DNA of 23,539 bases from an uncultured delta proteobacterium (GTDB lineage Bacteria; Desulfobacterota; Syntrophobacteria; BM002), in assembly GCA_963712115.1 (NCBI GenBank), contig CAVQGX010000023.1, positions 1 through 23,539 of the forward strand. The letters run 5' to 3'. Position 1 is the stretch's first letter, and each line of letters opens with the position of its first letter. The position numbers were made by a program, and so were the translations under genes. Of this stretch, positions 7,038-16,505 are shown one piece after another. Under the pieces are notes generated by a model. The model did no database searches, was not told where the DNA came from, and worked only from the letters and a program-made list of their open reading frames with translations.

Positions 7038-7085
7038 GCATAGCGCATAGCGCGAGCGCATAGCACAAACGCTTTGCGCTATGCT
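7038..7085. repeat. GCATAGC heptamer repeats with inverted copies
   Basis: GCATAGCGCATAGCGCGAGCGCATAGC...GCTTTGCGCTATGC; same family as 2171-2220 and 12063-12090. Confidence 0.75.
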
Positions 7086-7100
7086 TTTTTTGGGCTAAAC

Positions 7101-7871
7101 ATGCCAACTGTAGAGGTCGACGGCAGACCCATTCATTTCCTCACCGGAGTCAACGGGATCGCCCCAGGCAGGCGGAACATAATTTTCGTTCACGGAGCCG
7201 GAGGCAACGCATTTGCCTGGCAGAACCAGCGAAGGGGTCTGGACCGGGGAGTAAACACCATCTGTGTGGATCTACCCGGCCATGGCCAAAGCTCGGGTCC
7301 AAGCTGCACGAGCATTGCGGCATACAGCCACTGGCTGATGCGCTTCATTGATAGCCTGGGATTAACCGGTGTGATTGCTGCTGGCCATTCCATGGGAGGT
7401 GCAGTGATTCTTGAGGCAGCCCTTGAGTATCGGGAAATGTTGGAGGCCCTGATACTTGTCGGCAGTGGAGCACGGCTCAGGGTGAGTTCCGAAATATTGC
7501 AAAGTTTAGAGACCAATTTTGAGACCACGGCAGAACAGCTGATCCGTAACTCTTATGGTCCGGGAAGCTCCAAAAAGCTGCTCAACTGGGGGCTGGAACA
7601 CCTGCTAAAGGAGCTTCCGGAAGTGGTTTTGGCTGACTTCCGGGCGTGTGATGACTTCGATCGAATGGATGACATTTCTGAGATTAAAAAGCCTGCCCTG
7701 GTACTCTGCGGCAATGAAGACAGTATGACGCCAGCCAAATACTCCCAATACCTTGCCGAGAAGCTGCAGCGAGCTACCTTAAGGATAGTTGACAAGGCTG
7801 GCCACATGGCAATGGTGGAAAAGCCTTTCGAGGTAAATGCTTCGATACTAAAGTTCCTGGCCACTCTTTAG
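7101..7871 (+). CDS. Alpha/beta fold hydrolase
   Basis: FVHGAGG oxyanion region, GHSMGG nucleophile elbow, GNEDSMTP Asp, AGHM His. Start moved from TTG 7074 (inside a repeat) to ATG 7101. Confidence 0.9.
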   Translation: MPTVEVDGRPIHFLTGVNGIAPGRRNIIFVHGAGGNAFAWQNQRRGLDRGVNTICVDLPGHGQSSGPSCTSIAAYSHWLMRFIDSLGLTGVIAAGHSMGGAVILEAALEYREMLEALILVGSGARLRVSSEILQSLETNFETTAEQLIRNSYGPGSSKKLLNWGLEHLLKELPEVVLADFRACDDFDRMDDISEIKKPALVLCGNEDSMTPAKYSQYLAEKLQRATLRIVDKAGHMAMVEKPFEVNASILKFLATL

Positions 7872-8048
7872 CTTCGCTGTCATTTGGCTAAAGCCGTCAG
7901 TCGGCTTCGCCGTCATTACGCTTCGCTGTCATTTGTTTTAACAAGGGTTCTAGAATGATTGACTATGAATGGGGCAAATGACCACAGATGACGATAAATG
8001 ACGGGCGATTAGCCCAAGTGACGCCGTAGGCAAATGACTACAAATGAC
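7870..8048. repeat. TGAC plus mini-hairpin bipartite array, copy A
   Basis: Left half: 4x (mini-hairpin + GTCA); right half: 7x TGAC with hairpins GGGC-GATTA-GCCC and GCC-GTA-GGC; homologous to 15720-15923. Confidence 0.85.
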
Positions 8049-8123
8049 AAAGTGTTGCCCTTGCGCAGGGCTAGCCGCTTTACCGCCGATTAGGATTTAT
8101 TGAGGAGTGAGGGAAAGCCCCGG

Positions 8124-8837
8124 TTAGTCGCCTTTCTGAGGGGGCTTCATTTTGAAACCAAAGATCAGGACAAGAACAAGAGCTATCATTAAAAATGGTG
8201 CTATGCTCCTCAGCTCTTCAGGACTGGCGGAATTGAGAAAGTACCTCCACCAACGAGGGACTCTGGGGTCTATCTGCCAGGAAGATTTTACATCGGCAGC
8301 GGCAAGTTCGTTACGTCCTATCTTCCAGTAAAGCTTGGCCCTGGTTCTGTAAGCATCCGATTTGGCTCGTAGGTCTCCTCTGAGTTCGATTGCCTTGTTG
8401 GCATCAAGGAAAGCTTTCTCATCTTTGCCGGTCAACCGATAAGCTTCTGCCCGGTAGGCGTAGGATTTAAGATTCTCCGGCTCCATGTGGATTGCACGGC
8501 TGAAATTATTAATTGCCGGTTCATAGTTTTCACTCTTGAGATAGCCCATACCCAGCATCCAGTAGGCCTCAGGTTTTGCTGGCTCAAAGTCAAGATATTT
8601 ATTGTAATCTTGAATCACCCTGTCATATTCTCCTTGAAAATAATAAAGCAGTCCTCTTTTTTCATAAGCGGCCGCCAGGTTTGGGTTCAATTGCAATGCC
8701 TTGGTAAAGTAAGCTATTTTCTTGCGAGTATTAGAACCCTTAACTCCAAGGTCATAGTAGTCCATGGCATTTTCGCCATGAACGGCGGGCACACAAAGCA
8801 AGAGGAGTGCAAGAAGAAATATGGCCGTTTTGTTCAT
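8124..8837 (-). CDS. Tetratricopeptide repeat protein with signal peptide and C-terminal TM helix
   Basis: TPR patterns (AYFTKALQLNPNLAAAYEKRG, AYWMLGMGY, AINNFSRAIHMEP); MNKTAIFLLALLLLCVPAVHG signal peptide supports start 8837; hydrophobic C-terminus. Confidence 0.85.
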   Translation of the reverse strand: MNKTAIFLLALLLLCVPAVHGENAMDYYDLGVKGSNTRKKIAYFTKALQLNPNLAAAYEKRGLLYYFQGEYDRVIQDYNKYLDFEPAKPEAYWMLGMGYLKSENYEPAINNFSRAIHMEPENLKSYAYRAEAYRLTGKDEKAFLDANKAIELRGDLRAKSDAYRTRAKLYWKIGRNELAAADVKSSWQIDPRVPRWWRYFLNSASPEELRSIAPFLMIALVLVLIFGFKMKPPQKGD

Positions 8838-9045
8838 TGGTAGATTAGTAACCTGTGTTTGAGGAACTCCTGGTTTTGTCAAACTCTGCCATGCTCTACT
8901 TCTCAGGCAAGACAACGAGGGTAGGGAATGATTATATCAAGTTGGTTGAGAAGAGTACTATTTTTTTTATAGCAAGAAGTGGTAATGGTAGCAACATCAG
9001 GGTTAATATTACAGAAACATTTCACTTCCTGCCCTTATAAACTCC

Positions 9046-9984
9046 ATGAGATCTTTACTCCAAGAAGGTTTATTTGCCGGCATCCGTAAAGGATGGAATG
9101 GCTTTGTTTGGATGATCAAGATTCTGGTTCCCATATCTCTTCTAACCGCCTTGCTGGCATGGAGCGGTTGGATAGAGAAAGGTCAGTTCATCATCCAACC
9201 TGTCATGGACTGGCTCAGCCTGCCGGCTGTTGCTGCCCTGCCTCTGATGATTGGGATGCTGACAGGAATCTACGGGGGAATAGCCGCAATGGTAGTTCTT
9301 CCCTTAACCACAGAGCAGATGACCCTCATAGCCATTTTCCTCCTCATGGCCCACAACTTGATCCAGGAAGGGGTCATTCAGGGCAAATCTGGGCTAAATC
9401 CCGCCAAGGCGACGGTTTTTCGTCTGATATGCGCCACATTGACCGTGATGGTTGTGGCTGCCTTCTTGGATATAAACGCTAACGTACCAGAAGCCCCAGT
9501 GGCCTCCGAAGTGATTAGGCAGACATTCTCACTTATGTTGTGGAAGTGGGCAATGGCTAGTTCAAAACTGTGCCTAAAGATTTTTTTCATCATAATGACT
9601 ATCTTAATAACCTTAGAAGTGTTTAAGAGAGTCGGCTGGATAGAACATATAGTCAGGGTGTGCAGACCTGTACTCAAAGCTTTGGGTCTGAGCGAAAAAG
9701 CGGGAATTCTCTGGATGACCGCTGCCCTGTTTGGTTTGGCCTACGGTGCGGCGGTAATTGTTGAAGAGGCAAATGAAGGGCATCTGGGCAAGGAAGAACT
9801 GGAGGCATTACACCTTTCCATCGGCATCAATCATTCCCTGATTGAAGATCCAGCTCTGTTCTTGGCCCTTGGATTAAGTGCTTTCTGGCTTTGGATTCCA
9901 AGGCTTATAACCGCTGTTATCGCTGTTCGCCTTTTCAGTGTCTACCACCTCCTGTTCACCAAGGGTCAATCCGTGGAACTTTAA
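9046..9984 (+). CDS. Nucleoside-recognition (Gate) domain membrane protein
   Basis: 312 aa polytopic membrane protein with two similar halves; motifs AHNLIQEG, GLAYGAAVI, NHSLIED typical of this family. Confidence 0.75.
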   Translation: MRSLLQEGLFAGIRKGWNGFVWMIKILVPISLLTALLAWSGWIEKGQFIIQPVMDWLSLPAVAALPLMIGMLTGIYGGIAAMVVLPLTTEQMTLIAIFLLMAHNLIQEGVIQGKSGLNPAKATVFRLICATLTVMVVAAFLDINANVPEAPVASEVIRQTFSLMLWKWAMASSKLCLKIFFIIMTILITLEVFKRVGWIEHIVRVCRPVLKALGLSEKAGILWMTAALFGLAYGAAVIVEEANEGHLGKEELEALHLSIGINHSLIEDPALFLALGLSAFWLWIPRLITAVIAVRLFSVYHLLFTKGQSVEL

Positions 9985-10198
9985 AATCCACAGCAACTTT
10001 TCAGAAAGTCAACTAGCTGCTGGCTGCCAGCTGATTAATGATGCTATTGCCAACAGGGACAAACCCTTGGTATTGTGCTAAAATATTATTTGCTCAAAGG
10101 AAAGGGTAGAGCTAGAGGGCGAGCGCGATCAGAAGATGGGTCATCAAAGATGCCATCTGATCTCAATTGTCCCAACGAGTGAGAAATAGGTATTTGAT

Positions 10199-11137
10199 AT
10201 GGCAGGGAAAGACTATTACAAAACCCTTGGTGTGAATAAGAATGCCAGCAAAGAGGAGATAAAAAAATCCTATCGAAAGCTGGCGATGAAATACCATCCT
10301 GACCAAAACAAGGGTGACAAAGCTTCGGAAGAACGCTTTAAAGAAGTAAACGAGGCCTACGCTGTGCTCAGCGACGAGGAAAAGCGCAAGCAGTACGACA
10401 TGTTCGGCGCTGAGGGCTTCCAGCAGCGGTTTAGCCAGGAAGACATTTTTAGAAACTTCGATTTCGGCCAAGTTTTCAGGGAGTTTGGCTTCGGCTCAGA
10501 AGATGTTTTCGGACGCATTTTCGGCGGAATGGGTGGAGGCCGTCGAACTTTCGGTAGAGGTAGGGGTGGCTTCCATTCCGGTGGTCCCTTTGGTCGCACC
10601 GCCCAGCAGCCCCAAAAGGGTGCTGATCTGGTTATGGACATGCAAGTGAGCTTGAAGGAGGCGGTTTTTGGCGTTTCCAAAATAGCAGGTTTCAATCGAG
10701 GCACCGGGGTGGAGCGTGTTACAGTAAAAGTTCCGCCTGGAATTTCCTCCGGCAAGAAACTTCGTATTGCTGGAAAAGGACAGGAAGGTCTATGGGGAGG
10801 TCCGGCAGGTGATTTATTAATCAAAACTCTAGTGGCACCCCACCCGGTCTTCGAACGCAGTGGCGACAATCTTATCATCAGCAGAGAGATCAGTCTCACC
10901 CAGGCAGTTTTGGGTACTCAGATAGATGTCCCAACCCTAGATGAAAAGACACTCAGTCTCAAGGTGCCCCCAGGCACCCAAAGCCACACACAGATGAGGA
11001 TAAAGGGGCACGGAGTACCTCATTTCAATAAAACAGGCAGGGGTGATCTTTACGTCAAGATTATGGTGCGTCTACCGAAATCCCTTACACCAGAGCAGGA
11101 AGAGCTGTTTAAACAACTCGCTGACCAGGATCTATAG
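10199..11137 (+). CDS. Class B DnaJ/CbpA-type co-chaperone
   Basis: J-domain KDYYKTLGV...KYHPD, G/F-rich linker, C-terminal domain; no CxxCxGxG zinc-finger repeats. Confidence 0.93.
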
Positions 11138-11166
11138 CGAAGTAAGTTGAGGGATTAACCTCCATT

Positions 11167-11319
11167 AAATCCGAATATCTAAATTCGAAATCCGAAACAA
11201 ATCTTAATGTCCAAAATCCCAATGACCAAAATTTGACTTTAATTTAGTCTACTGTTTTGAGCATTTGTAAATTTGAATTTTGAATTTGTTTCGTGCTTCG
11301 TGCTTAGGATTTCGGATTT
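11167..11319. repeat. Bipartite heptamer palindrome, copy 2
   Basis: 66-bp arms 11167-11232 and 11254-11319; ends AAATCCGAA/TTCGGATTT. Confidence 0.9.
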
Positions 11320-11343
11320 GCTGCACTTTCCCACGCTACTTAG

Positions 11344-12039
11344 ATGAGCACGACAAACTCGAAAATATCCGAGTTGAACCAAGAGACACTCAGAGTTGCA
11401 GCGGCGGACTTCCTCTATCTCCTGGACCGAGGCTACCCTCGCAGAGCTGGCCTTCAACTGGTTGGCAATCGGTACAACCTCGATGCGCTGCACCGGGAAG
11501 TCTTACACCGAGGTGTTTTTGCTCGCAAGGAAGCTGGAGAGCGACGTGACCGTCTTGTGGAAGTTGAACGGCTAGTTGACTTCAAGCTCTTGGTGGATGG
11601 TCACAATGTTTTGATAACCGTGGAGAGTGGCCTAGCAGGTCGATTACTAATCGCTGCCAATGACGGGGTGATTCGAGATGTGGCTGGAGTTTCCCACCGT
11701 TACCGAATCTCAACCCTGACACATGCGGCGATAGACACAATTTTTCAAGTCCTGCAAAAATATCCCCCCAAAGAAACTCTGTTCTTCTTGGATGCACCTA
11801 TTCGCCAAAGCGGTGAACTAGCGACTGCACTCCGTTCTGCCTTGAAAAGTTGGAATCTGTCGGGGGATGCGCAAGCCCTCAAAGTACCAGAAAGCAGGCT
11901 CATAGGAGGTGAGGGCGTTATAGCTAGCAGCGATTCTGCCGTGCTTGATGGGGTGCAGCGAGGGTTTGATCTTGCGGCCACCGCCATTAGATGCCTACCT
12001 CGGGAAGCAGATCTTATTGACTTTACATTCTTGGGTTAA
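11344..12039 (+). CDS. DUF434-like protein
   Basis: 231 aa; YLLDRGYP...LVGNRYNL, VDGHNVLITVES, DGVIRDVAG, ASSDS motifs resemble the DUF434/DUF5616 family (from recall). Confidence 0.75.
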   Translation: MSTTNSKISELNQETLRVAAADFLYLLDRGYPRRAGLQLVGNRYNLDALHREVLHRGVFARKEAGERRDRLVEVERLVDFKLLVDGHNVLITVESGLAGRLLIAANDGVIRDVAGVSHRYRISTLTHAAIDTIFQVLQKYPPKETLFFLDAPIRQSGELATALRSALKSWNLSGDAQALKVPESRLIGGEGVIASSDSAVLDGVQRGFDLAATAIRCLPREADLIDFTFLG

Positions 12040-12062
12040 TTATCCATCTTGTCTCTTTCCAC

Positions 12063-12090
12063 GCTATGCGCTATGCGCTATGCTCTATGC
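12063..12090. repeat. GCTATGC heptamer tandem
   Basis: GCTATGC GCTATGC GCTATGC TCTATGC. Confidence 0.8.
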
Positions 12091-12124
12091 GGCTGAGAGA
12101 ACTGCAAAGGTGTAAAGAAACAGC

Positions 12125-12805
12125 ATGATAAAACTGGAATCTGTGACAAAGACATACACCCTGGGCCAACAGCGGATAGTTGCAGTTAATGATGTATCCC
12201 TGACCATTGAGCCGGGAGAATTTGTGGCAATTATGGGTAAAAGTGGCTGTGGGAAGACCACTCTGCTTGGCTTAATCGGTGGGCTCGACCGTCCGGACAG
12301 GGGCCACATTTGGGTCGAGGGAGAGGATATTACCCAATTGCCTGACCTCAAACTTACCCGTTATCGCCGAGACCAGGTGGGCATCGTTTTCCAGTTCTTC
12401 AACCTGATTCCAATTTTGACCGTTTCCGAGAATGTGGCTCTGCCCTATACGCTCCAGGGGAGACCAGAAAGGGAGGTTCAGGCTCGGGTCGAAGAGTTGC
12501 TGGAGGACGTCGATCTCTGGGAGAGGCGCGATCACTATCCCCACGAAATTTCCGGCGGTGAGATGCAAAGAGTTGCCATAGCCAGGGCTCTGATCAATCG
12601 GCCAGGTCTTGTCTTGGCAGATGAACCCACAGGCAATTTGGATTCCCGTACAGGGCGTCAGGTCATGGAGGTGATGGCCGAACTCAGTCAGCGACACAAC
12701 ACTACCTTTGTGCTAGCCACTCATAGTAACGAGGCGGCCTCCTTCGCCAGCAGGAAGATGCATATGCGGGACGGCACACTGACATCACCAGAAAAAACTG
12801 TTTAG
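12125..12805 (+). CDS. ABC transporter ATP-binding protein, LolD/MacB (AttE-like) family
   Basis: Walker [10 protein letters not shown]-loop VFQFFNL, signature ISGGEMQR, Walker [12 protein letters not shown]-loop LATH. Confidence 0.95.
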
Positions 12806-12866
12806 AGTACATAACCGTTCATCAAAGATAAGAGCACTATAGAGAGGCCTTACACTGGATGTCAGG

Positions 12867-13023
12867 AAATCCGAAATCCTAAATCCGAAGCACAAAACAA
12901 ATCCAAAATCCTAATGTTCCAATGTTCAAAACAGGCTGTTAATGGCGGTCCAAATACGTTTTGGTCATTTGGATTTTGAAAATTTGAATTTGTTTCGGAT
13001 TTCGATATTCGAATTTAGGATTT
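12867..13023. repeat. Bipartite heptamer palindrome, copy 3
   Basis: 66-bp arms 12867-12932 and 12958-13023, located between the ABC ATPase and permease genes. Confidence 0.9.
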
Positions 13024-13088
13024 GCCAGGCGCGGTTAGCACTTCGAATCTCGTATCTGTACCCAGCTGTGATGTTGTCGGGAGGTTAA

Positions 13089-15650
13089 ATGCTTAAACTC
13101 TGGCGTTGGTTTTGTCTCAGACATCTGAGAAGCTATAAAGGCCGTGCTTTTCTATGCCTCCTTGGTGTGGCCTTGGGGGTGGCGGTTTTTGTGGGGATAA
13201 AAACAGCAGCCTCCAGCGCTTTAGTCTCCTTCCAGGATACGGTAACTTCGCTGACCGGTAAGGCACAACTTCAGGTAACGGGTCAGGGGAACGGCTTCCC
13301 TGAGGAAATCTATGCCAGGGTGACTTCTTTAGAAGAAGTACATGCAGCCACGCCGGTTTTGGAATTCAATGTCATAGCAACAGCCCCGGTGGATGAGCCC
13401 CTGCTTATGCTGGGGATCGATGTCTTCAGTGACCAAGAATTTCGGCAGTACCATTTTGTAGATTCGCAAGAAAAAAATGGAGCCGTCCTATCTTTTCTCA
13501 CCGAACCTGGCGCAATTGCCCTCACTGAGAAGTTCGCAGAGCGCCACGGGCTCAAGGTGGGTGACGAACTGGAAATCCTCTCCGGCTCCCGACGACTGTC
13601 ATTCACTGTGCGGGCGCTACTCAAACTCAGAGGTCCGGCTCGCGCTTTGGAGGGCAACTTGGCCCTGGTAGATATTGCCACTGCCCAGGAGGTCTTCGAA
13701 CAGCTAGGGCGACTTCATCGCATAGATCTGATCCTGGCTGAAGATGTATCGCCCGAGGAGGTGAAGGAAAAACTGCAGAACCTCCTACCGGCTGATCTGA
13801 CGGTGGAGCCACCGCAAAAACGTCTCGGGCGAATAAGCGATATGATAAAGGCCTACCGCTTGAACCTCCTTGCCCTGAGTCTTATCGCTTTATTCGTTGG
13901 GATTTTTCTCGTTTACAACGCTGTAGCCTTTGCGGTTCACAAGAGGCGTTATGAAATCGCCATGCTCCGTGTACTAGGAACCCAGAGGTGGCAGATACTT
14001 GGACTTTTCCTGGGCGAGGCTCTCCTCGTAGGATTACTTGGCGCATTAATTGGAGTGGGTCTGGGTCTGGTGATGGCGAAGATTGCCCTTCGGGCGATGG
14101 CAGGGACGATAAGTGAGCTCTACCTCTTAGTAAGGGCTGAGACCCTCAGCCTTTCTCCCCTAGTAATTCTTCTGGGTGCAGGAGCAGCCTTGGGCGTGGC
14201 CTTGCTGGGTGGGCTCTTTCCCTCCCTTGAGGCCAGCCGTACTCTACCAAGGGAAGCTCTCTATCGAAGCGCACAGGAGAGGCGGCTGAAGATGAATCTC
14301 GGTAGAATCTCTCTGGTGGGAGTCATAGTGTTGGGGGCGGGCTATCTGTGTAGCCAACTGCAACCAGTAAACGGACTGCCTCTTTTTGGTTTTGTTGCGG
14401 CCTTTTTGATTCTGGCAGGATTTTCCTTTCTCACACCGGCTAGCGTCCTCCTGGTGAACCGAGCTCTGGCGCCGGGGCTGGCTGGTATATTCAAAATAGA
14501 AGGCAAAATGGCAAGTCGCTATCTTGGCCGATCTCTGAATCGCTCGGCGGTTGCTATTGCCTCTTTGATGACAGCCCTTGCCATGCTCATTAGCATCTCC
14601 ATAATGATCCTCAGTTTCCGGCAGACAGTGAAGGTCTGGACAGAGCAGATTATTTCCGCAGATCTTTTCATCTCACCAGCGGGGCGGCTAACCGGCCAAA
14701 GAGGCAATTTACCTCCTGAGTTGGTCGAGTCACTGCCGAAACTTCCCGGACTTGTCGCCATGGAGCGTTTGACTGAGATTCCAATGAGTATAGATAACGC
14801 GCCGGCACTCTTGTTTGTCACGGATCTGGAGGTCAAAGCGAAGTTGAGCAGGATAATGTTGAGAAAGGGCTCCTCCAAAGAGATTCTTCGTCGCTGCAGG
14901 GAGCAGGGGCAGATCACAATCTCTGAGGTTCTAGCAAATCGGTTGAATCTCGCTGAAGGAGATTACCTCCAAATGCCTACCCCTAGAGGGCTGGAAAGTT
15001 TCCTGATCGCGGGTGTTTTTTACGACTACCGCACAGAGGGCGGAATGGTAATCATGGACCGGTCAACCTATGTGAAATATTGGCCGGAGGAGCGGCGGTA
15101 CACCTCTGTGGGAATATATCTTGAACCTGGATCCAGTCTGGCTGAAGTGCGAAACCTCATTCGAGGTCGGCTCAAGAGAAGTGAGGAGGTGTTCATCACG
15201 AGCAACAAGGAACTGCGGCAGGAGATACTGCGCATTTTTGATCAGACTTTTTCCATTACCTATGCACTGCAAATAGTTGCAATTGTGGTGGCGATTTTCG
15301 GTATCGTAAACACCCTGGTACTTCTGGTCATGGAGCGGGAGCGGGATATCGGTGTCCTCAAGGCCGTGGGAGCTACAAACTGGCAAGTTCAGAAAATGAC
15401 TCTGCTGGAAGCCGGACTAATGGGCCTGATAAGTTTTGTCTTAGGAGCGGTAAACGGTATACTTCTTTCATTGCTTCTTATCTTCGTCATAAACAAACAA
15501 TCCTTTGGCTGGACTATTCAATTCAGTGTTCCAGGGACGATGCTTGGCAAGACCCTGATCCTAGTTCTGGCTTGTGCTGTGATTGCAGGCATCTTTCCGG
15601 CTCGAGCCGCAGTTAGTAAGCGAATAAGTGAAGTGATGAGACTGGAGTAA
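13089..15650 (+). CDS. ABC transporter permease, duplicated FtsX/MacB type (AttF/G-like)
   Basis: 853 aa; two MacB-periplasmic + FtsX halves (RRYEIAMLRVLG; ERERDIGVLKAVGA); INKQSFGW motif; RBS GGAGG. Confidence 0.92.
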   Translation: MLKLWRWFCLRHLRSYKGRAFLCLLGVALGVAVFVGIKTAASSALVSFQDTVTSLTGKAQLQVTGQGNGFPEEIYARVTSLEEVHAATPVLEFNVIATAPVDEPLLMLGIDVFSDQEFRQYHFVDSQEKNGAVLSFLTEPGAIALTEKFAERHGLKVGDELEILSGSRRLSFTVRALLKLRGPARALEGNLALVDIATAQEVFEQLGRLHRIDLILAEDVSPEEVKEKLQNLLPADLTVEPPQKRLGRISDMIKAYRLNLLALSLIALFVGIFLVYNAVAFAVHKRRYEIAMLRVLGTQRWQILGLFLGEALLVGLLGALIGVGLGLVMAKIALRAMAGTISELYLLVRAETLSLSPLVILLGAGAALGVALLGGLFPSLEASRTLPREALYRSAQERRLKMNLGRISLVGVIVLGAGYLCSQLQPVNGLPLFGFVAAFLILAGFSFLTPASVLLVNRALAPGLAGIFKIEGKMASRYLGRSLNRSAVAIASLMTALAMLISISIMILSFRQTVKVWTEQIISADLFISPAGRLTGQRGNLPPELVESLPKLPGLVAMERLTEIPMSIDNAPALLFVTDLEVKAKLSRIMLRKGSSKEILRRCREQGQITISEVLANRLNLAEGDYLQMPTPRGLESFLIAGVFYDYRTEGGMVIMDRSTYVKYWPEERRYTSVGIYLEPGSSLAEVRNLIRGRLKRSEEVFITSNKELRQEILRIFDQTFSITYALQIVAIVVAIFGIVNTLVLLVMERERDIGVLKAVGATNWQVQKMTLLEAGLMGLISFVLGAVNGILLSLLLIFVINKQSFGWTIQFSVPGTMLGKTLILVLACAVIAGIFPARAAVSKRISEVMRLE

Positions 15651-15659
15651 AACCAGCTT

Positions 15660-15717
15660 GCAGCAAGCGGCTAGCAGCGGGAAGCAGGTGACTAGGCACT
15701 AAACACTATGCACCAGG
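15660..15717. repeat. GCAG-type then ACTAGGC-type heptamer tracts
   Basis: GCAGCAAGCGGCTAGCAGCGGGAAGCAGG followed by ACTAGGC ACTAAAC ACTATGC ACCAGG; same order as 2248-2308. Confidence 0.65.
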
Positions 15718-15719
15718 AG

Positions 15720-15923
15720 GTCACTACGCTTCGCGCCATTGCGCTTCACTGTCATTAAGCCACTAAAGTGGCCGTCATTAAGCTTCGCTGTCATTTGTTG
15801 TCACTAAACAATGAGAGACCATGAATGACGCCGAAGGCAAATGACCATAAGTGACAGCCGTAAGGCCTAATGACGGGCGCAAGCCCTATTGACGGCGAAG
15901 CCAAATGACCTAATGACAGTGAC
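15720..15923. repeat. TGAC plus mini-hairpin bipartite array, copy B
   Basis: Left: GTCA units with CGCTTCGCG, GCCACTAAAGTGGC, AGCTTCGCT; right: TGAC units with GCC-GAA-GGC, GCC-GTAA-GGC, GGGC-GCAA-GCCC, GGC-GAA-GCC. Confidence 0.88.
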
Positions 15924-15926
15924 AAT

Positions 15927-16505
15927 ATGGACTTTATAGAAAAGAAAAGACAGGTATTCCAGCTATATGACGAGTATGAGATGTTTGTACAGCCTTATAA
16001 AATTCAGGCGGTCTGTGAAAAAGGTTGTGCCTCCTGTTGTATAGACGTTGGGAATGTTGGGGCAACGACGCTTGAGGGCTTGATTGTCCTCGAATACCTG
16101 CAAGGGTGGGATCACCAGGCAATTGAGGAGATTAACCGTAGCCTAAGAGAGAATAGGAGTGAGAAGCTGAACAGTGTCCTAGTACGCTGCCCTTTCTTGG
16201 ATGAAGAGGCGAGCTGTCGCATCTATGCTGTGCGCCCATTTAGCTGCAGAAGACTCTATTCAGTCAAAAAATGTGATGGCCAGGGGGCGGTGGTTCATAG
16301 ACTGTCCGTTGTATTAGGGCAGAAGATGGAGAAGGAGTTACAGGATTTAGACCCAGAGGGATGTTCGGGACACCTGAGCTTCATTCTTCACCTGCTGAAG
16401 AAGGAACCATTTCGCTGGGGCTATCTGAAAGGAAGTTGGAATTTGGAGGAATTCAGGGACATTATCGAGCGCTATGAGCTAGTGGTGCACAAAGGGGCCC
16501 CATAG
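15927..16505 (+). CDS. YkgJ-family cysteine-cluster protein (CxxxCxxCC, putative Zn/Fe-S binding)
   Basis: CEKGCASCC, CPFLDEEASCRIYAVRPFSCR motifs. Confidence 0.85.
   Translation: MDFIEKKRQVFQLYDEYEMFVQPYKIQAVCEKGCASCCIDVGNVGATTLEGLIVLEYLQGWDHQAIEEINRSLRENRSEKLNSVLVRCPFLDEEASCRIYAVRPFSCRRLYSVKKCDGQGAVVHRLSVVLGQKMEKELQDLDPEGCSGHLSFILHLLKKEPFRWGYLKGSWNLEEFRDIIERYELVVHKGAP

Follow-up and report, generated by a model that had tools for sequence, protein, structure and literature searches.

Short words repeated between genes, as in the STRR type, and stand-alone four-helix-bundle proteins annotated as '23S rRNA intervening-sequence' proteins are both widespread and both unexplained. STRR, the short tandem heptamer repeats of heterocystous cyanobacteria, were reportedly described by Mazel et al. 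in 1990. The four-helix-bundle family PF05635/TIGR02436 (Avd-like, '23S rRNA intervening-sequence protein') has, to our knowledge, no catalytic motif or activity; the intervening sequence (IVS) in the 23S rRNA of Leptospira encodes an S23p/PF05635 protein, and Avd is pentameric and binds nucleic acids. The 23S rRNA IVS of Coxiella burnetii holds an ORF for an S23p/PF05635 protein (PMC4990558), Avd of diversity-generating retroelements is a PF05635 member (PMC10053308), TAACTGA repeats occur in Beggiatoaceae (MacGregor 2015, PMC4679880), and Ssn nucleases are associated with NTS/SRM repeats, which start with CGTCAT, continue with a hairpin and are cut as single-stranded DNA (ssDNA) only (Chenal et al. 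2025, PMC11893778). REP/REPIN-RAYT systems (PMC3116915, PMC3337134 and PMC6006769) form a further basis of comparison.

We analysed a window, meaning the whole stretch of 23,539 nt of contig CAVQGX010000023.1 (GCA_963712115.1) from an uncultured delta proteobacterium (GTDB Desulfobacterota; Syntrophobacteria; BM002), which contains two arrays of short words and mini-hairpins, copies A and B. In the literature searched, Table S1 parts 1-5 and 7 of PMC6006769 and the supplements of PMC11893778 aside, we found no description of such arrays or of their link to a gene, and the covered sections of PMC4679880 mention neither helix-bundle genes nor AATGAC.

Arrays in the window and across the genome

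Both copies are bipartite: the left arm is built of GTCAtt words and the right arm of aaTGAC words, and GC mini-hairpins separate the words (Table 1). Most units span 16-19 nt with their hairpins, each reading GTCATT-N-hairpin on the GTCA strand, and the centres are without a PF05635 ORF. The first-pass annotation had noted both arrays and their design, which we recovered, together with the two junctions it pointed out: copy A begins inside the hydrolase stop codon, and copy B ends 3 nt ahead of a start codon. Folding was strong, with z = -3.5 for copy A as ssDNA and z = -6.3 (DNA) and -7.4 (RNA) for copy B, in whose predicted fold the two arms pair and local mini-hairpins also form. No Rfam family reached its gathering score anywhere in the window, and at E values up to 5 the two array regions gave chance-level matches only; promoter and terminator scans returned nothing relevant to the arrays above shuffled sequence. 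Short-word arrays like the simple-repeat flank of copy B border many members of the family described below and are the arms of other four-helix-bundle cassettes.

Table 1. Coordinates of the two arrays, their parts and the adjoining genes in the window
Feature	Positions	Strand	Description
Alpha/beta-hydrolase gene	7074..7871	+	host gene outside the element; stop TAG 7869-7871 overlaps first hairpin of copy A
Copy A	7870..8051	.	complete gene-less bipartite element between hydrolase stop and convergent TPR gene
Copy A left arm	7870..7932	.	four GTCA(T/G)T words interleaved with mini-hairpins; family D2
Copy A left-arm GTCA word starts	7879, 7896, 7912, 7928		
Copy A left-arm mini-hairpins			gcttcgc, ggctaaagcc, ggcttcgcc, gcttcgc
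Copy A first mini-hairpin	7870-7878		AGC-TTC-GCT
Copy A centre	7933..7959	.	small palindrome TTGT-TTTA-ACAA, then spacer
Copy A right arm	7960..8051	.	seven TGAC words, two mini-hairpins, short hairpin-less spacers; family D1
Copy A right-arm TGAC word starts	7960, 7979, 7989, 7999, 8019, 8035, 8045		
Copy A right-arm mini-hairpins	8003-8015; 8023-8031		GGGC-GATTA-GCCC; GCC-GTA-GGC
MacB/FtsX-type permease gene	13089..15650	+	host gene, upstream of copy B
Copy B simple-repeat flank	15655..15715	.	cagcaag/cagcggg-type and cactaaa/cactatg-type words
Copy B	15720..15926	.	complete gene-less bipartite element; fills spacer between co-directional MacB-like permease and CxxCxxCC genes
Copy B left arm	15720..15805	.	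five GTCA words and hairpins
Copy B left-arm GTCA word starts	15720, 15751, 15774, 15790, 15800		
Copy B left-arm hairpins	15733-15744; 15759-15772; 15781-15789		GCGC-CATT-GCGC; GCCAC-TAAA-GTGGC; AGC-TTC-GCT
Copy B right arm	15824..15926	.	eight TGAC words and four mini-hairpins, loops GAA, GTAA, GCAA, GAA
Copy B right-arm TGAC word starts	15826, 15842, 15852, 15871, 15890, 15906, 15914, 15920		
Copy B right-arm mini-hairpins 1-2	15830-15838; 15857-15866		GCC-GAA-GGC; GCC-GTAA-GGC
Copy B right-arm mini-hairpins 3-4	15875-15886; 15894-15902		GGGC-GCAA-GCCC; GGC-GAA-GCC
CxxCxxCC-domain gene	15927..16505	+	host gene; ATG at 15927, 3 nt past last TGAC word of copy B

The copies belong to a dispersed family. 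A genome-wide pattern search identified 153 merged clusters with at least four tagged words, compared with 17 in a mononucleotide-shuffled genome; 136 of the 153 are intergenic, and all gene-orientation contexts are represented. The earlier expectation of a REP/REPIN-like family of structured extragenic repeats with more than two copies was thereby borne out, as was that of a fixed word (AATGAC/GTCATT) adjoining covarying mini-hairpins. The proposed strand bias of GNA loops also held in larger sets: triloops on the TGAC strand were GNA in 334 cases and TNC in 10 (n = 428) in this genome, and GNA in 126 and TNC in 4 (n = 191) in an independent cross-phylum set. Stems are short, with 2 bp in 275, 3 bp in 223, 4 bp in 100 and 5-7 bp in 42 of 640 hairpin units. 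The AATGAC word is conserved in sequence, and the spacers are either free or GC mini-hairpins that keep their pairing and the G..A loop frame. The same design was found in Bacteroidota, Nitrospinota, Calditrichota and others. As first supposed, it matched no catalogued REP class in part 6 of 7 of Table S1 of PMC6006769 or in the main text of PMC3733652, and neither paper has the string 'TGAC' in its main text.

In this genome, the 1,366 ORFs located up to 2.5 kb from arrays clustered into ordinary paralogue families only (ABC ATPases, PilZ proteins, sigma-54 activators and kinases), with no recurrent mobile gene. The arrays were not read as CRISPR, integron attC sites or iterons: they have no unique spacers of constant length, neither a cas nor an integrase gene recurs beside them, and their family numbers about 150 dispersed loci.

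A four-helix-bundle gene cassette with the same arms

The search for genes flanked by such arrays, which the first-pass annotation had suggested, did yield a partner, a gene for a PF05635 four-helix-bundle protein. The genome has one intact gene of 122 codons (contig C52, 9149-9517), enclosed by four GTCAttNN words and four NNaaTGAC words, and one pseudogene (contig C3), enclosed by GTCA-plus-hairpin and TGAC-plus-hairpin arms. In five array-bearing genomes from other phyla, TGAC arms were present at exactly 3 of 30 PF05635 loci, and these three genes and the one on C52 form a single clade (99/99 support) in a tree of 37 proteins.

A profile of this armed clade recovered 242 relatives, from which we kept the best 80, selected via the PF05635 gene; 70 of these had at least 200 nt on both sides. 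Loci from cultured organisms include those of Fibrella aquatica GW2-5 (L079/L189) and Roseimarinus sediminis DSM 28824 (L286). At 63 of the 70 loci, drawn from the best 80 of 242, at least two GTCAww words lie upstream and at least two wwTGAC words downstream, oriented as in copies A and B. At least three words on each side were counted at 47 of the same 70; two loci have neither arm and one has the opposite orientation. Arms most commonly contain 3-5 words. AATGAC arms and the armed PF05635 clade go together across phyla, and the word is linked to the clade in at least nine phylum-level groups.

The cassettes are very compact and follow one order: an arm of GTCATT words, a ribosome-binding site, an ORF of about 120 codons and an arm of AATGAC words, with the stop codon often being the TGA of the first TGAC word. 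Among 797 words at cassette loci, the two positions preceding TGAC are A in 93% and 86%, and hairpin-less units of 7, 8, 10 and 11 nt predominate. Because the stop codon and the ribosome-binding-site leader are fused directly to the arms at 63 of 70 loci, gene and arms look like one unit. The cassette encodes no recognised transposase or mobility enzyme.

Hairpin units are unevenly divided between the arms, accounting for 68 of 264 3'-arm units and 14 of 244 5'-arm units; by locus, the 3' arm is richer in 27, the 5' arm in 3, and 38 are equal. This 3' excess hints at a role in RNA and fits a constraint at that level at least as well as the possible substrate for an ssDNA-acting protein that the first-pass annotation had envisaged.

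Since copies A and B have no PF05635 ORF in their centres, we filed them as gene-less derivatives or partners and not as full cassettes. Such copies are the rule in this genome, where about 150 array loci compare with the two that hold a PF05635 ORF, and no gene remnant was found in about 64 bipartite gene-less copies. Their centres are small palindromes made from the start of the 5' leader and are not simple leader-plus-trailer deletion products. Besides C52 and C3, other split arrays with centres of 170-2,500 bp turned out to be chance runs of GTCAAT type or a large inverted duplication.

The window arrays are probably gene-less members, among about 150 loci, of a family whose arms enclose genes of the PF05635 clade, and would be its non-autonomous or decayed cassettes, related to the gene-bearing form as REPINs are to a RAYT gene. 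The arrays may enlarge and reshuffle through replication slippage and unequal exchange among words. The cassette's own protein may read AATGAC words on a single strand, with the transcript as the favoured form; there the 3' arm would present AAUGAC plus GNA hairpins, and the mini-hairpins could act as self-folding spacers or 3' protectors. That the four-helix-bundle protein recognises single-stranded AATGAC words by their sequence, likeliest on the 3' arm of its own RNA with one word per ring subunit, and so drives the spread of gene-less arrays, is a proposal we make with considerable reserve and would sooner expect to fail than to hold. The idea of a pentamer comes from the five chains of PDB 2gsc and the pentameric Avd. 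If correct, the family would be a REPIN-like replicator with a non-enzymatic, Avd-like nucleic-acid chaperone as its partner, possibly using host polymerases or reverse transcriptases, and it would account for STRR-type repeats and for the function of the stand-alone PF05635 family.

Turnover, gene presence and competing readings

Orthologous sites show that the arrays turn over quickly among congeners. The site of copy A is empty in one congener (G007), has a different palindrome in a second (G011) and a decayed orthologous array in a third (G012), with point mutations within the words. At the site of copy B, L005, L013 and L017 carry differing sets of units and L009 a relic; the site is empty in L006, L007, L008, L012 and L016. 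For both copies, the sequences beside filled and empty sites have diverged too far for a target-site duplication to be read.

Genomes with an intact clade gene tend to hold more arrays. Searches of 13 genomes of the genus found the gene in three, which have 162, 136 and 60 sixteen-base units, compared with 11-41 in the remaining ten. Counts are only 0-2 in the 8 genomes that represent other families of the class. Among 61 genomes of the order of a Bacteroidales assembly (G002), a gene match scoring 100 bits or more was present in 6 of 13 with at least five arrays and in 3 of 48 without (Fisher P = 0.002, relatedness ignored, which overstates the case because related genomes are not independent). 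The link between arrays and gene clade is partial. No gene was detected in the array-rich G002 (214 pattern matches), G036 (39) and G067 (20), or in the ten congeners with arrays, which include the single-contig assemblies G007 and G016; array persistence therefore does not need the gene. In one genome (G030), the gene search gave a match of 156 bits but the pattern search gave none. Because arrays break assemblies, absence of the gene from metagenome bins is weak evidence. Logan contigs of RNA and DNA libraries were seen to end inside arrays, carrying loose ends from paralogous copies, and no sequencing run searched through these contigs contained half of the sampled words.

These gene-less genomes bear on the possibility that descent ran the other way, with bipartite AATGAC arrays as independent, self-propagating repeats of STRR or simple-sequence type and the gene clade homing into their centres. 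The palindromic centres of gene-less copies, not being deletion scars, speak for it as well, and blocks of several units have plainly been duplicated in tandem as arrays grew (for example, at loci L063 and L302). However, the three highest unit counts belong to the three congeners that hold the gene, the stop codon and leader are joined directly to the arms at nearly all cassette loci examined, and no homing enzyme is encoded by the cassette. We regard reversed descent as unlikely.

The arrays could instead be targets of Ssn-type single-domain GIY-YIG ssDNA nucleases, their units being miniaturised SRMs with a GTCAT tag and a hairpin. The word on the opposite strand, (C)GTCATT, resembles the CGTCAT start of NTS/SRM motifs in the covered part of PMC11893778, and this genome has two small GIY-YIG ORFs and about 20 canonical NTS-like motifs (CGTCATTCCCGCGAAAGCGGGAATC) arranged as inverted doublets. 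Yet the 38 genomic matches to the published SRM search sequence, for which shuffled genomes yield 21-38 matches, include none in the TGAC arrays. Small GIY-YIG genes, representing the small nuclease that had been named as a candidate partner, were flanked by TGAC arrays in neither of the 2 cases in this genome nor in any of 10 in five other array-bearing genomes; they have long-stem GTCAT hairpins of their own, and the G-first loop lies on the GTCAT strand in the canonical motifs here and on the TGAC strand in the arrays. An Ssn system is an improbable explanation.

Slightly less credible still is an RNA element that benefits the host, has no mobile partner and is selected at gene ends (for example, as an intergenic processing site for RNase III, to stabilise mRNA 3' ends or to attenuate transcription in both directions). 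It would suit the contact of arrays with stop and start codons, the strong folding (z from -3.5 to -7.4) and the polarity of hairpins relative to the cassette gene. Against it, presence at orthologous sites differs among congeners, words decay by point mutation (the copy A site in G012), arrays occur in all gene-orientation contexts, and there is neither a terminator-like excess nor an Rfam match.

A REP/BIME-like substrate of a Y1 HUH enzyme (RAYT/TnpA) with TGAC as guide tetranucleotide, the partner first suggested, is very improbable and largely refuted by gene neighbourhood. In its favour are the extragenic, high-copy, BIME-like mosaics with a fixed tetranucleotide beside hairpins, the Y1 proteins encoded in 6 of 6 array-bearing genomes examined and an IS200-type gene (C56) at a distance of 140 nt from an array. 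Against it, arrays were absent from the 1.5 kb around all 20 Y1 loci of five other array-bearing genomes; of four Y1 genes in this genome, only the one on C56 lies beside an array, on one side only and with its own hairpin ends; the resident RAYT (C20) is flanked by GTAG-tagged REPs; and stems of 2-4 bp fall far below any REP in part 6 of 7 of Table S1 of PMC6006769.

Comparison with known systems

The gene-bearing cassette of our preferred reading resembles the 23S rRNA IVS in having a four-helix-bundle ORF of about 120 codons within inverted repeats, as a small selfish insert with no recognisable transposase. Unlike the IVS, it has protein-coding genes as neighbours, and its arms consist of AATGAC words with mini-hairpins and not of simple stems; in most copies (about 150 versus 2 in this genome) the ORF has been lost or was never there. 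Avd acts on RNA whose start lies at the 3' end of the Avd gene, a parallel to the cassette's 3' arm, rich in structured units; unlike Avd, the AATGAC cassettes have no reverse transcriptase, template repeat or variable repeat beside them. As with MITEs, terminal inverted repeats are common to the multi-copy arrays and the gene-bearing parent, but a MITE parent encodes a transposase and the cassette parent is without a known one.

With STRR and TAACTGA repeats, the arrays share a patchy occurrence among phyla and may share intergenic tandem words of 7-11 nt, often directly before start codons, and STRR2 (TTGGTCA) is presumably the array word in another register (GTCATTG). They differ in being bipartite and inverted, with interleaved GNA mini-hairpins, and in being tied to a gene clade. 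Ssn NTS/SRM repeats likewise combine a GTCAT tag with a hairpin, flank their own partner gene and number in the hundreds, and they act single-stranded, as the arrays may; the arrays fail the SRM search sequence, do not flank Ssn-like genes and have the reverse loop polarity to the tag.

Our results also explain why assemblies of metagenomes break at the arrays and why gene order changes there. Like REP/REPIN-RAYT systems, they are extragenic inverted doublets in high copy and mosaic clusters, with a low-copy partner gene flanked by the repeats, which tend to be more numerous where the gene is present. Their partner is not an HUH enzyme, however; their tag is (AA)TGAC/GTCA(TT) and not GT[AG]G or CGTC, their stems have 2-4 bp compared with about 5-17 bp (the REP class being imperfect palindromes of about 20-40 nt with at least 5 pairs), and their units are tandemly iterated words and not single palindromes. 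AATGAC words with GNA mini-hairpins are now joined to one PF05635 clade, and repeat numbers are related to the presence of its gene much as those of REPINs are to RAYT.

Word arrays in the window and its genome

Copies A and B of the window share the bipartite design described in the first-pass annotation, with word arms and mini-hairpins present in both. GTCAtt words make up the left arm and aaTGAC words the right, and successive words are separated by 2-6 free bases or by one of several GC-rich mini-hairpins (gcttcgc, GCC-GAA-GGC, GGC-GAA-GCC, GCC-GTA-GGC, GCC-GTAA-GGC, GGGC-GCAA-GCCC, GGGC-GATTA-GCCC and GCCAC-TAAA-GTGGC). The gene boundaries given in that annotation also hold: the TAG stop of a hydrolase ORF (7074-7871) contains the start of copy A, and the ATG of a CxxCxxCC gene (15927) lies 3 nt past the end of copy B. 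Compared with shuffles, the single strands of both copies are much more strongly folded: DNA parameters give z = -6.3 for copy B and -3.5 for copy A, and RNA parameters give -7.4 for copy B; the predicted folds pair GTCATT with AATGAC between the arms and keep the mini-hairpins local.

A total of only two copies, which the first-pass annotation gave as grounds against its reading, is not what the genome shows. Using a criterion of at least four tagged words, each within 40 nt of another, we identified 175 clusters in the 4.9-Mb, 70-contig assembly, which merged into 153 loci totalling 15.6 kb, 64 of them bipartite, 49 with words of the left type only and 40 with words of the right type only; the same scan of a mononucleotide-shuffled genome returned 17. 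Rough gene calls made for this analysis (80% coding) place 136 of the 153 loci between genes, in ++ (51), -- (34), convergent (30) or divergent (21) gene contexts, with 14 others within ORFs, mostly short and doubtful, and 3 at contig ends. Runs of at least four words contain 760 units, 280 of them 16 nt long and consisting of TGAC, a 9-nt hairpin and AAA, TAA or TAG. A near-uniform 46-nt subfamily, with four GTCA words and tttgttgtaagaggtagagg at its end, accounts for 54 one-armed loci.

Other repeats accompany the arrays in this genome. Other heptamer arrays always occur at the borders of the 46-nt subfamily, and a second repeat of ~45 nt (aactgggaacccgcttgcggg..gagcggagcgcagcgagcgcga) is nested in the right half of several TGAC arrays. 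A ~4.7-kb segment between two TGAC arrays, including a glutamate-1-semialdehyde aminomutase-like gene, is present in two near-identical copies, which may reflect either a genuine duplication or an artefact of assembly or binning (bin contamination is given as 5.99%).

Coordinates of arrays, genes and accompanying repeats in the window and its genome
Feature	Coordinates	GTCA words (left)	TGAC words (right)
Copy A	window 7870-8051	4	7
Copy B	window 15720-15926	5	8
46-nt one-armed subfamily, example	C14:33781-33826	4	
Nested ~45-nt repeat	C2:45116-45365, C26:75970-76225, C3:38253-38454, C6:41621-41848		
~4.7-kb segment, two copies	C29:611-5284, C52:36703-41376		
Four-helix-bundle ORF between arms	C52:9149-9517		
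TGAC array at contig end (L001)	C56:8165-8362		
RAYT-like Y1 gene (L004)	C20:238078-238593		
Ssn NTS-like motif sites	C21:25782-25860, C22:11501-11580, C39:53468-53550, and ~8 more		
Single-domain GIY-YIG ORF	C14:38616-38870		
Four-helix-bundle gene split by it	L201:1344-1929 = C14:38459-39044		

The strand bias towards GNA loops claimed in the first-pass annotation is real. A hairpin is present in 640 of the 990 word-to-word units read along the TGAC strand. Triloops of the window's genome are GNA in 334 of 428 cases and TNC in 10, with the middle base of GNA free (A 180, C 60, T 58, G 36), and tetraloops are GNRA in 41 of 150 and TYNC in none. At 80 independent loci, selected via a protein and not via hairpin sequence, GNA accounts for 126 of 191 triloops and TNC for 4. 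Stems vary yet stay paired (GC, GGC, GCC, GGCC, GGGC, GCGC, GGCCAC); the word is conserved in sequence, the spacers in structure only.

A four-helix-bundle gene between the arms

A search for genes between a left and a right arm, in line with the check for array-flanked genes suggested at first pass, yielded an ORF of 122 codons on contig C52, with four GTCAttNN words on one side and four NNaaTGAC words on the other. Its product is a four-helix-bundle protein of the TIGR02436/PF05635 family (Avd-like, 23S rRNA intervening-sequence, IVS). Each of the 14 PF05635 matches in the window's genome lies between inverted arrays of some short word, the arms being of TGAC type in two (C52 and a pseudogene on C3). 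PF05635 matches number 7-15 per genome in five other array-bearing genomes and are present in only 1 of 14 control genomes; TGAC arms flank 3 of 30 PF05635 loci fetched from those five genomes. The three foreign TGAC-armed proteins form one clade with C52 on a long stem (99/99 support) in a 37-protein tree that omits four fragments of <100 residues, the C3 pseudogene among them. Identities to C52 within this four-member clade are 51-64%.

From a search of the genome collection with a profile of this clade, the best 80 of 242 relatives were kept; these come from Ignavibacteria, Bacteroidota, Desulfobacterota, Marinimicrobia, Verrucomicrobia, Lentisphaerae, Cloacimonadota, Nitrospinia and Calditrichaceae. 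Ten loci in which one flank was shorter than 200 nt were excluded, leaving 70 of the best 80. Of these, 63 have at least two GTCAww words upstream and at least two wwTGAC words downstream, 47 have at least three words on each side, 2 have neither arm and 1 has words in the opposite orientation. The arm-gene partnership extends across phyla. The word in cassette loci is AATGAC, with A at 93% and 86% of the two preceding positions (797 words). The cassette is compact: the TGA of the first TGAC word is the stop codon in 21 of 40 rows inspected, and the last GTCA word usually lies 15-60 nt upstream of the ATG, with a ribosome-binding site between. At their centres, gene-less copies have small palindromes made of sequence from the start of the 5' leader, rather than the scar of a simple deletion. 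Four-helix-bundle genes of different clades in Desulfobacterota have a common leader, GAAAGGGG(C/G)CRCC, a few bases before the ATG (loci L157-L170 and L221-L250), longer than a ribosome-binding site needs.

The arms are alike on either strand, so only the gene gives direction. Across 68 gene-bearing cassettes, GC-stem hairpins with GNA or GNNA loops occupy 14 of 244 units in the 5' arm versus 68 of 264 in the 3' arm, the 3' arm having more in 27 loci, the 5' arm in 3 and neither in 38 (binomial p = 8e-6, overstated because many loci are related). As the 3' arm in mRNA is the TGAC strand, GNA loops would be in the transcript downstream of the ORF. This polarity fits selection on RNA, whether against hairpins in the 5' leader or for them in the 3' tail. 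The mini-hairpins may also act at the DNA level; the extraordinary stability of the GCGNAGC type is known from DNA work (PMC13037366).

Candidate nuclease partners

The opposite strand of the array word reads (C)GTCATT, a tag therefore common to the arrays and to the published motifs of Ssn, the single-domain GIY-YIG ssDNA nucleases. These motifs start with CGTCAT, have a hairpin after it and are cleaved as ssDNA only (PMC11893778). The reading of the arrays as Ssn targets does not fit beyond this tag. The published Ssn search sequence has 38 matches in the genome, versus 21-38 in shuffles, and none within arrays; ~20 of the matches are canonical hairpins resembling the Neisseria NTS repeat motif (CGTCATTCCCGCGAAAGCGGGAATC and CGTCATCCCCGCGTAGGCGGGGATC), elsewhere in the genome and mostly in inverted doublets ~15 nt apart, with no GIY-YIG gene adjoining them in this assembly. 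Small GIY-YIG ORFs are without flanking arrays in 2 of 2 cases in the window's genome and in 10 of 10 in five other genomes, and the ten foreign genes bear long-stem GTCAT hairpins of their own. Moreover, the G-first loop is on the GTCAT strand in canonical Ssn copies but on the TGAC strand in the arrays. Separately, an 84-codon GIY-YIG ORF splits a four-helix-bundle gene on C14 at its conserved S-x-N-I-x-E-G region, and resembles a free-standing nuclease gene, of homing type or Ssn-like, that sits within another small selfish gene.

An HUH enzyme (RAYT/Y1), the partner proposed at first pass, was not borne out, since no array lies within 1.5 kb of any of the 20 Y1 loci fetched from five array-bearing genomes in other phyla, and only one of four Y1 (PF01797) matches in the window's genome is next to an array, on one side only. 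That gene, on C56, is of IS200 type with its own terminal hairpins, 140 nt from the array; two others are identical IS200-type copies, and the fourth, on C20, is RAYT-like and flanked by GTAG-tagged REPs (GGGCGGGGTTTATCCCCGCCC). The same GTAG-tagged REP fills the copy B site in two relatives (L006, L008), so the lineage also has an ordinary REP/RAYT system. The unit matched no catalogued REP class, a possibility raised at first pass, in the literature covered: neither PMC3733652 nor PMC6006769 contains 'TGAC' in its main text, and in Table S1 (part 6 of 7) of the latter, the 'atypical' REPs of subclass 2.6 have stems of ~8-17 bp and tags other than TGAC.

Distribution, turnover and reading

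One 20-base unit of copy B has exact matches in more than 106 stretches among species-representative genomes (a lower bound), with ~1 expected by chance. Among the matches listed are Syntrophobacterales-type Desulfobacterota, Bacteroidales, Flavobacteriaceae, Fibrella, Rhodothermales, Melioribacteraceae, Calditrichaceae and Nitrospinia, and the bipartite design is common to the loci inspected. In the sampled genomes of the class, the array family occurs only in the window's genus (12 of 12 congeners; 0 of 8 genomes of four other families).

Gene presence and array number are linked positively but incompletely. The clade gene was found in the window's genome and in congeners G010 (two intact copies) and G012 (one intact copy), and not in the other ten genomes of the genus. 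A 16-base unit pattern has 162, 136 and 60 matches in the three gene-holding genomes and 11-41 in the other ten (Mann-Whitney p = 0.007, with related genomes not independent), versus 0-2 in other families of the class and 0-2 in reversed-pattern controls. In the order of the Bacteroidales assembly G002, 13 of 61 genomes have at least five three-word hits, and gene matches of at least 100 bits occur in 6 of these 13 versus 3 of the 48 others (Fisher p = 0.002). Counter to the link, the gene was not seen in array-bearing G002 (214 hits), G036 (39) and G067 (20), and G030 has a 156-bit gene match and zero array hits. Failure to find the gene in a metagenome bin carries little weight, since contigs end in arrays, C56 and several loci of other assemblies among them; arrays break short-read assemblies and so bias such results. 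Two single-contig congeners also bear arrays, with no gene found in either genome, and arrays clearly persist without it.

Relatives differ by rapid turnover of the arrays. The copy A site is empty in congener G007; G012 has a point-mutated orthologous array and G011 has another palindrome, near-perfect with a 33-bp stem (gtacaggggacgttggtaggttttgaaggttttc...; L147 on contig C323, ortholog of window 7872-8100); unrelated hairpin elements seem to have landed at this gene end repeatedly. The copy B site has different unit sets in three relatives and a relic in one, and is empty in five. Orthologous sites differ between congeners; over the time in which species diverge, arrays are therefore gained and lost, have their units reshuffled, and decay. 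Multi-unit blocks are tandemly duplicated, for example at L063 and L302.

Copies A and B are gene-less members of a repeat population belonging to one four-helix-bundle cassette clade. Such copies are probably non-autonomous or decayed derivatives of the cassette, whose own protein would read the words on the single strand, and the arrays would grow by slippage. In the literature searched, neither the arrays nor their link to the PF05635 gene family is described, and the TAACTGA-repeat paper does not mention either. With respect to known systems, the array-gene cassettes are the same kind of element as IVS-type four-helix-bundle cassettes, their repeats resemble short tandem heptamer repeats (STRR), and the population structure of the arrays is REPIN-like.
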